Virus record (IMG/VR): IMGVR_UViG_2740892422_000006
Coordinates: 1-15,227 of that record
Origin: a virus
Taxonomy: Duplodnaviria; Heunggongvirae; Uroviricota; Caudoviricetes
Strand: one strand, 5' to 3'
Length of the DNA: 15,227 nt
In this document: in pieces, positions 11,001 to 12,071 of the stretch
Layout of the letters: each line of letters begins with the position of its first letter
How positions within the stretch are numbered: the stretch's first letter is position 1
Notes under the pieces: generated by a model
What the model was told of the DNA's origin: nothing
What the model saw: the letters and a program-made list of their open reading frames with translations, nothing else
Databases searched by the model: none
Translations under genes and position numbers: made by a program

Positions 11001-12071
11001 TTACCCCCTGAAGCCCGGTGGAATTTCGGTATCCGGTTCAGAAATATGATTCACACAACGCTGGTTGTTCGTACCGCTTACCGGGAGCAACCAGGGGTTT
11101 TCAAAATTCCGGTCCGGTCCAAGAAACGTCGTCGCCCGCTGAACAAATTCCGTTCCCGTTTTCCCGGTAACCGCTAGGTATCTTGCGTAACGCCTCACGC
11201 CATCCAGCATTGCCTCTGGTGGCACCCCCTCGCGTAATCTGGCCTTCCAGGCACTGAAAGCGGATTTCTTCGGGTTTGCCCCGGCACGCAACGGGTACTC
11301 CCGCCAGACCTGTTCGAACACATCCGGATAATCCACTCGTCCCACAGACTGCCCGGTGTTTTCCGGGACTACCCGATCGGCTTCCCACTGAATGGCGGAA
11401 TCGGCTTCAGGCTGCTGCAGTTGGTGTGATTGCTCCGGCCTTGCGGTCATCACCTGCTGCACAGCGCCCGAATCGGCTTTCAGCGCATACGCTGAATCGG
11501 CTTCCGGTGTCGTGCCTGCTGGCTGACCAAGATTGACGGTCTGAACATCCCCTGCCTGGTTCGTGGCGTTTTTTACGCCATGGACCATAGTGTTTTGATC
11601 TTCTTGATCTGTATCTTTATCTGTATCTTTATCTGTCGTGACTCGTCGTGACATGTGCGTGACATTTCGTGACGCGCCGTGACCATCGCCATTTTGTTCC
11701 CGCTTTCTTTCCCTCTCTCGCTGCGCCCTCTTGCGCTCTGCAGGAGATTTTGCGGTTTGCGAAATATTGCCGTTGTCCTCTTTAAGCACCTGGCGTTTTT
11801 CCCATCCAGTGATTAAATCACCATCAAGTACCCGCCCCTGCATCGTCTGCAAAATTGAATCAATTACCTCTTCTGTCACGTCGAGCGCACTTGCCAAATC
11901 TTCTGTCGTGACATCAATGTGACCTCGCGTGACATTTCGTGACGCGCTCACCAGGAGGTGGATATACACTGCCATCACTGTTGCAATTGGCTGCCCTGAC
12001 ACCCTGGCAATTGTTCGCCACTTAGGGTCATTTGGCATGTCATGCCATAATCTGAGCCAGGCGTTAGCCAT
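11001..12071 (-). CDS. Putative replication initiator (lambda O-like role) with internal iteron-like repeats, 356 aa
   Basis: Position downstream of cro and the CII-like gene; internal clusters of CGTGAC repeats (iteron-like, as in lambda O); ATG at 12071 with GAGGTGA SD (track start 12077 is GTG). Family not confirmed. Confidence 0.5.
   Translation of the reverse strand: MANAWLRLWHDMPNDPKWRTIARVSGQPIATVMAVYIHLLVSASRNVTRGHIDVTTEDLASALDVTEEVIDSILQTMQGRVLDGDLITGWEKRQVLKEDNGNISQTAKSPAERKRAQRERERKREQNGDGHGASRNVTHMSRRVTTDKDTDKDTDQEDQNTMVHGVKNATNQAGDVQTVNLGQPAGTTPEADSAYALKADSGAVQQVMTARPEQSHQLQQPEADSAIQWEADRVVPENTGQSVGRVDYPDVFEQVWREYPLRAGANPKKSAFSAWKARLREGVPPEAMLDGVRRYARYLAVTGKTGTEFVQRATTFLGPDRNFENPWLLPVSGTNNQRCVNHISEPDTEIPPGFRG
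11607..11682. repeat. Iteron-like cluster A inside the O-like gene: three 12-bp tandem repeats (ATCTGTATCTTT) and five CGTGAC motifs at about 10-11 bp spacing
   Basis: Read directly: atctgtatctttatctgtatctttatctgtcgtgactcgtcgtgacatgtgcgtgacatttcgtgacgcgccgtgac. Confidence 0.55.
11864..11945. repeat. Iteron-like cluster B inside the O-like gene: GTGAC motifs plus an exact 20-bp repeat shared with cluster A
   Basis: CGTGACATTTCGTGACGCGC occurs at 11658-11677 and at 11918-11937. Confidence 0.55.

Follow-up and report, generated by a model that had tools for sequence, protein, structure and literature searches.

The window analysed here is a 15,227-nucleotide stretch of viral DNA (Caudoviricetes; positions 1 to 15,227 of IMG/VR record IMGVR_UViG_2740892422_000006), which contains on its minus strand, at 11001-12071, the gene of a putative replication initiator. 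Two clusters of short direct repeats (iterons) lie within this gene, and the second of them borders an AT-rich tract. Sequence analysis and comparison with related loci indicated that these repeats are probably the functional replication origin of a lambdoid-type Escherichia coli prophage, located inside the initiator gene and bound by the product of that same gene. The elements concerned are the following:

11001..12071, minus strand: initiator gene of 356 amino acids (ATG at 12071, stop at 11001-11003), defined by its open reading frame and translation
11781..12071, minus strand: coding region of the N-terminal domain (aa 1-97), a putative iteron-binding domain with three helices, a loop and a winged helix-turn-helix
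11907..11943, minus strand: iteron array A, four direct GTCAC(G) copies on the sense strand, spacing 11/10/10
11875..11880, plus strand: single inverted core copy, GTCACG on the plus strand and CGTGAC on the sense strand
11637..11683, minus strand: iteron array B, five direct core copies, spacing 10/11/10/10
11598..11637, no strand assigned: AT-rich tract of three tandem 12-bp units, sense (GATACAGATAAA)n, candidate DNA-unwinding element

The start codon at 12071 is the one annotated in phage Tritos and in E. coli KFu019. Source records name the gene 'phage replisome organizer', 'DNA replication protein O' or 'primosomal protein I', and Tritos/Evi-type records also annotate 'replication protein, N-terminal phage replisome organiser'. 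In DNA sequence the gene shares 97-99% identity with genes of the Escherichia phages Tritos, Evi and others. Of 5426 complete E. coli genomes, 2535 contain a match to it, and the initiator module is also present in phage isolates of Escherichia, Aeromonas, Pseudomonas and Ralstonia.

On the plus strand, array A reads CGTGAC at 11907, 11928 and 11938, with an in-phase TGTGAC variant at 11918, while the CGTGAC copies of array B start at 11637, 11647, 11658, 11668 and 11678. The inverted copy lies 27 bp past array A in the sense direction, towards array B. A preliminary description of this DNA had reported two helically spaced clusters with ten or more CGTGAC motifs; the clusters and their spacing were recovered, and the count proved slightly generous, the gene holding nine exact CGTGAC/GTCACG copies and the one TGTGAC variant. 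The clusters, placed about 260 bp apart in that description, start 270 bp apart and leave a gap of 192-224 bp, and the exact repeat given there as 20 bp is present but 21 bp long (GCGTGACATTTCGTGACGCGC, at 11657-11677 and 11927-11947). The iteron units are direct repeats of 10-11 bp with a 6-bp asymmetric core, GTCACG. Core matches in the whole window numbered 13 against 5.0 +/- 2.1 expected, a value reached in none of 200 shuffles. Chains of one 5-mer spaced by 10-11 bp comprised five and four copies, compared with a maximum of three in 1000 dinucleotide shuffles of the gene, and in none of these shuffles did one 5-mer make two chains of three or more copies. The clustering and phasing of the core are far beyond chance, and the locus shows the multiple direct repeats in helical phase, with a lineage-specific core, that characterize iterons. 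DnaA boxes (TTATCCACA, up to two mismatches) were found at chance level (49 vs 46.8 expected), and none with a perfect match or a single mismatch occurs in the gene.

The AT-rich tract directly adjoins array B, and array B only, on the gene-downstream side. Tandem repeat analysis (Tandem Repeats Finder) recovered the 12-bp repeats of the preliminary description at 11602-11637, with a period of 12, 2.9 copies and 95% matches. The 36-bp tract is the least stable 36-mer of the gene (dG -38.9 vs a mean of -51.4, z 3.5). As had been noticed before, the repeats also surface in the translation, which contains ASRNVT twice and TDKDTDKDTD, the latter encoded by the AT tract. However, sense-strand GTCAC starts at gene nt 128, 138, 148, 159, 388, 398, 408, 419 and 429, and so in all three codon phases, the core being read as Ser-Arg (TCA-CGN), Val-Thr (GTC-ACG) or Gly-His (GGT-CAC). 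This use of every frame places the repeat in the DNA, with the recurring peptides as a side effect.

The comparative set was obtained by a protein search and a scan of one genome per species, which gave 44 loci from Enterobacterales, Pseudomonas, Bordetella, Acidovorax, Aquitalea, Chromobacterium, Gilvimarinus and others, to which phage records and metagenome contigs were added. In about 27 gamma- and beta-proteobacterial homologues the core and its placement in the gene are the same, with four copies near nt 128-159, an inverted one near nt 192 and three to five near nt 386-450; the last group is followed immediately by (GATAAA)n or (GATACA)n. The array A positions at nt 128, 138, 148 and 159 are shared by more than 20 homologues, and the inverted copy is kept in most homologues with the GTCACG core, its Val codon being GTG in 17 of 17. 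In a codon alignment of 20 divergent members of this class, with gene GC contents of 42-68%, the effective number of codons at invariant four- and sixfold degenerate residues was 1.29 in iteron columns (n = 13) and 3.44 elsewhere (n = 34; Mann-Whitney p = 3e-7). Within iteron columns, Val was GTC in 20/20 at two positions, Thr was ACG in 20/20 and 19/20, Gly was GGT in 20/20, His was CAC in 19/19 and 18/18, and Ser was TCA in 19/20 and 20/20; the array A codons GTC-ACG, GGT-CAC and TCA are invariant or nearly so, whereas invariant residues outside the arrays use four to six synonymous codons each. The AT tract is likewise written with GAT and AAA codons even at a GC3 (GC content at third codon positions) of 0.72, and its own GC content in homologues is 0.19-0.37. 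Recent transfer was considered as a cause of the shared arrays and rejected, since the flanking codons of the same sequences are saturated with synonymous change.

Other lineages retain the two arrays and an AT- or purine-rich tract with a different core, and the two arrays always change together. At least four core classes were distinguished: GTCACG; GTAACG (loci L024, L028, L032, L036, L055 and L058, of which L055 and L058 have both domains in common with the window protein); GCAACG (phage Firinga of Ralstonia, with an N-terminal domain only 38% identical); and CGAACG(C) (L030, L034, L035, L039 and L052). The arrays are absent where only the C-terminal half is shared, as in Shigella phage 75/02 Stx, in which the join lies just past the position of the AT tract, and in L040-L046. 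They follow the N-terminal winged-helix domain and not the C-terminal half or the neighbouring genes, and in the six related loci that were inspected over their full length (about 5-7 kb each) the majority of core copies fall within the two arrays. On this comparative evidence the arrays, the AT tract and the N-terminal domain are best described as one heritable module, like the lambdoid ori/O hybrids. Close relatives differ in copy number by 21 bp, that is, two sites, seven codons or two helical turns, and array B of the window carries such a two-iteron, 7-codon insertion relative to most homologues. This stepwise change accounts for the alternating spacing of 10 and 11 bp and for the exact 21-bp repeat, and it keeps the reading frame. 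Three AT-rich loci from Ventosimonas and Entomomonas (L029, L033 and L037) have one or two CGAACG-like sites and a long (GATAAA)n tract, and may be reduced or decayed origins. In L038 and L045, from a Serratia metagenome-assembled genome and Pantoea, a segment that by eye only resembles a GIY-YIG nuclease is inserted after the N-terminal domain; clustered TACGTA/CTACG repeats mark the start of the insert, and GTCACG-type arrays are lacking from both loci.

The frozen synonymous sites, the concerted change of core and the co-inheritance with the N-terminal domain support the interpretation of the repeats as an origin, and the proposal of the preliminary description, that iterons and AT tract form a prophage origin inside the initiator gene, gained strong support from these comparisons. 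The arrangement is best read as working like oriλ and the origins of RepA_N plasmids. In oriλ, too, repeats bound by the initiator (putatively so bound here) lie within the initiator's own gene, where, like array B here, they occupy the segment for the linker that joins a DNA-binding N-terminal part to a C-terminal part for recruitment. The oriλ record annotates four iterons within O and, beyond them in the direction of transcription, an A/T-rich stretch, a layout paralleled by array B and its AT tract. The same kind of layout, with initiator repeats in the initiator's own gene and an A/T-rich tract, is found in the origins of Stx phages (PMC7466680).

Structure prediction with AlphaFold2 gave a confident model for residues 1-97 of the initiator, with three helices, a loop at 46-55 and then a helix-turn-helix with a beta-wing; residues 128-244 were disordered, and a helical C-terminal domain at 245-305 was moderately confident. 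Array A encodes residues 43-55 (ASRNVTRGHIDVT), a loop inside the folded domain, while array B (aa 130-146, ...GASRNVTHMSRRVTT) and the AT tract code for the first part of the disordered linker. In the model, the N-terminal domain has a winged helix that may resemble the N-terminal domain of DnaD and an iteron-binding plasmid initiator. The loop peptide differs between classes, being ASRNVTRGHIDVT in the window, SNATERGRTQNV in the CGAACG class and GNAGVTQSNA in the GTAACG class. A distinctly improbable idea is that this loop itself helps to recognise the repeat, so that a change of site would automatically alter the recognition element; if true, such self-referential coupling would explain how the core switched at least three times with hardly any change elsewhere in the N-terminal domain.

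The remainder of the protein contains one further element of interest:

11004..11339, minus strand: C-terminal helical domain (aa 245-305) and 25-residue tail (aa 332-356), putative module for recruitment of host helicase loading

The tail (11004-11078, VNHISEPDTEIPPGFRG) is identical to the tail of E. coli DnaT at 15 of 25 residues (BLASTP, E 1e-7), aligns to positions 156-179 of the NCBIfam DnaT model and occurs in YdaU of the Rac prophage as well (E 7e-6). Neither the three-helix domain of DnaT that binds single-stranded DNA (ssDNA) nor its N-terminal oligomerisation domain was detected in a profile search of the PDB, in which DnaT chains scored E 0.6-0.9. The tail looks like a portable short motif common to unrelated phage initiators and a host primosome protein. 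DnaT is described as the adaptor believed to deliver DnaB/DnaC to the preprimosome in a manner that is still unknown (PMC13377028), and DnaT lacking the C-terminal residues beyond 153 binds ssDNA with lower cooperativity (PMC4132743).

Genomic context analysis placed the initiator gene in a lambdoid immunity and replication region, directly downstream of cI-, cro- and cII-like genes:

12887-13525, plus strand: cI-type repressor with S24-peptidase
12565-12843, minus strand: P22-Cro-type gene
12143-12568, minus strand: YdaT/cII-like gene
10538-10960, minus strand: DUF977 protein, next gene after the initiator

In relatives the initiator is followed by DnaC-like, DnaB or P-like genes, and in the full-length relatives L055, L057 and L058 an IstB/DnaC-like loader gene comes right after it. 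Unlike these, the window, phage Tritos and E. coli KFu019 have the DUF977 gene directly after the initiator, with no DnaC-like loader in between (10538-11000); no P-type helicase loader was found downstream of the initiator in the window. A prophage without a loader gene of its own would by implication rely on host DnaC.

According to the mechanism that we propose, derepression would lead to transcription from the cro-side promoter and to synthesis of the initiator, whose N-terminal domain would contact the phased repeats from one side of the helix and form oligomers. The two arrays, about 200-270 bp apart, might be bridged by looping or wrapping, and the resulting stress would melt the neighbouring (GATACAGATAAA)n tract. 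Recruitment of host DnaB, via host DnaC or the host primosome, would then fall to the C-terminal domain and the DnaT-like tail; this route is suggested by the missing loader gene.

Several results weigh against this interpretation. In 50 distinct near-identical E. coli copies, single-nucleotide polymorphisms were found at 3 of 60 core positions and 96 of 1011 others, a rate about half that of the rest of the gene and not significantly lower (p = 0.18); the viral-contig scan behind this test yielded only copies 98-99% identical, which added no diversity. Array A is absent from L029, L033 and L037, which keep at most one or two B sites, and L051 has no recognisable repeats. No residues outside the iteron-encoded loops could be demonstrated to track the iteron class, such class differences as were found being confounded by phylogeny, as with a 9-residue insertion that follows the wing in GTCACG-class proteins. 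PHROG 3729, 'replication initiation protein', matched the product with an E-value of 5.8e-254; a Pfam scan returned no family at E <= 0.01, and TIGR01714 aligned (residues 5-125 to model positions 1-119) below threshold, at 15.4 bits against a cut-off of 49.8 (E 0.016). Structural matches of the model were to generic winged helices with modest Z-scores below 8, Foldseek gave no match in the PDB with E < 0.3, and a sequence profile search of the PDB gave nothing significant. BLASTP against lambda O detected no similarity (best E 1.5), so that the term 'O-like' used in the preliminary description fits the gene in position and presumed role and not in sequence.

One alternative holds that the initiator binds both arrays, but that at least array A serves control and not firing, through autoregulation or a roadblock of transcription of the gene, copy-number handcuffing or a cis enhancer like crr of P4, the origin then being array B and the AT tract only. 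The AT tract adjoins array B only, some relatives keep this tract and one or two B sites without array A, and neither the helical phase between the arrays nor a distance of whole helical turns is conserved across homologues, all of which would fit. Synonymous conservation is nevertheless at least as strong in array A as in array B, and array A switches core together with B in every class. This division of roles overlaps with the origin interpretation rather than excluding it, and sequence alone does not separate control from initiation; we consider it unlikely.

It is very improbable that the repeats are bound by a different phage or host protein, for transcription control, packaging or partition, or that they act as a signal in the mRNA. 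A DUF977 protein of DNA-binding type and a cII/YdaT-like regulator are encoded next door, and synonymous constraint would fit an RNA element equally well. Against this, the arrays co-occur with the N-terminal domain despite differing neighbours (DnaB, DnaC-like, P-like, DUF977) and are gone where the same C-terminal half, in similar context, carries another N-terminal domain. Phasing by 10-11 nt, an inverted copy and an AT tract alongside are features of duplex DNA, the Rfam search gave no RNA family in the origin region, and DnaA boxes are not enriched there. Finally, a feature of the protein without DNA function (SRNVT or DKDT peptides in loops and linker), to which the repeated peptides and a loop Arg-Gly pair conserved even in repeat-less relatives might point, is in effect ruled out by codon usage: the motif occurs in three frames, its synonymous positions are frozen while neighbouring invariant residues vary in codon, and AT-rich codons persist against strong GC pressure.

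Taken as an origin bound by its own initiator, the locus agrees with lambda in gene order (repressor, cro, cII-like gene, initiator) and, as in lambdoid phages, its N-terminal part and ori act as one exchangeable module. It differs from oriλ in having two arrays, one of them within the coding region of a folded DNA-binding domain, in the lack of a P gene and in the DnaT-like tail. Lambda sites are 18 bp long and about 20-24 bp apart, and lambda-type sites of about 18-19 bp with an internal dyad were not found here, the units being direct repeats of 10-11 bp with a 6-bp core and no dyad. Membership of the lambda O family (Pfam Phage_rep_O) was rejected on homology, site structure and the P partner alike. 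Origins inside initiator genes are known from RepA_N plasmids, SPP1 and lactococcal phages, and their layout is matched here. The RepA_N initiators of Gram-positive plasmids (pSK41 RepA, PDB 4pta) and the DnaD-like organizers (SPP1 G38P and lactococcal phages; TIGR01714) contrast with the present system in its proteobacterial hosts and bipartite array, and the initiator gave no match to Pfam RepA_N or Phage_rep_org_N (PF09681). In satellite phage P4, ori and crr are two separate clusters of short initiator-bound repeats acting together in cis; these clusters are kilobases apart and outside the alpha gene, and alpha is a primase-helicase unrelated to the initiator described here.

Sequence comparison with Rac YdaU gave only the tail and a DKD stretch. 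The last 25 residues (VNxxSEPDxxIPPGFRG) are all that E. coli DnaT and YdaU have in common with the initiator, apart from internal repeats and a TNKDTDKD stretch encoded by the YdaU gene, reminiscent of the DKD stretch here; the N-terminal domain of YdaU is DUF1376, unrelated to the present one. The Rac ydaU gene of E. coli K-12 (L003, 4120-4977) contains five RRTGTTCAA-type repeats, at 4261, 4472, 4505, 4538 and 4550; by analogy these are candidates for the iterons of oriJ, the Rac origin, which would likewise lie within the gene of its initiator.

An origin inside an initiator gene is an arrangement of a known kind, and the principle is textbook. The phage family, very common as it is, is apparently uncharacterised, and in the searched open-access literature on oriJ/Rac, lambdoid iterons and replisome organizers, DnaT-like initiators, the motif and the typing of Stx-phage replication regions no description of the origin of this initiator module was found. 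Its distinctive traits are the bipartite array with one half in the coding region of the DNA-binding domain, the very short sites, the copy number quantised in 21-bp steps, the four or more core classes and the DnaT-like tail without a loader gene. A known origin would give a defined target for mapping prophage induction and replication, and the four core classes are a candidate basis for replication-specificity groups among co-resident prophages. The module would also be a clean natural case of overlapping codes, in which putative DNA-binding sites constrain the synonymous sites of a coding sequence, and its tail and missing loader suggest a route of hijacking host helicase loading unlike that of lambda P.

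The promoter and terminator scan returned nothing above chance apart from one element:

11557..11587, no strand assigned: imperfect 13-pair palindrome, TGGTTCGTGGCGT-TTTTT-ACGCCATGGACCA, about 10 bp beyond the AT tract

Folded as DNA, this palindrome had an energy of -8.7 kcal/mol (z -3.2), and four relatives retain its pairing although both arms have changed. The palindrome lies within the C-terminal module and is possibly, though uncertainly, part of the origin; alternatively it could terminate antisense transcripts or arise by chance from the conserved peptide VHG-K-A.

A further repeat, ATCGGCTT (sense AAGCCGAT), occurs four times within 11376-11503 and nowhere else in the window, with starts at 11376, 11400, 11472 and 11496. 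The copies are spaced by 24, 72 and 24 bp, are always in frame and encode (E/K)AD(S/R), and the codons (GAA/AAA-GCC-GAT) are identical in all eight instances from the window and the 52-56% identical relatives L055 and L057. Since the element is also present in Shigella phage 75/02 Stx, it was assigned to the C-terminal and not to the iteron module; some E. coli variants have a 32-amino-acid deletion between copies. It may be either a DNA site or an acidic peptide motif.

Elsewhere in the window, on the strand opposite the replication genes, a eukaryote-type Ser/Thr protein kinase (Pkinase, E 1.4e-31) and an adjacent PP2C-type phosphatase are encoded at 8105-9599 (plus strand). Rfam matches at 4469-4775 (minus), 7690-7864 (minus) and 14693-14744 (plus) revealed four tandem tRNA genes, a sok antitoxin RNA of the hok/sok type and the small RNA DicF, which are typical cargo of Qin/Rac-like prophages.

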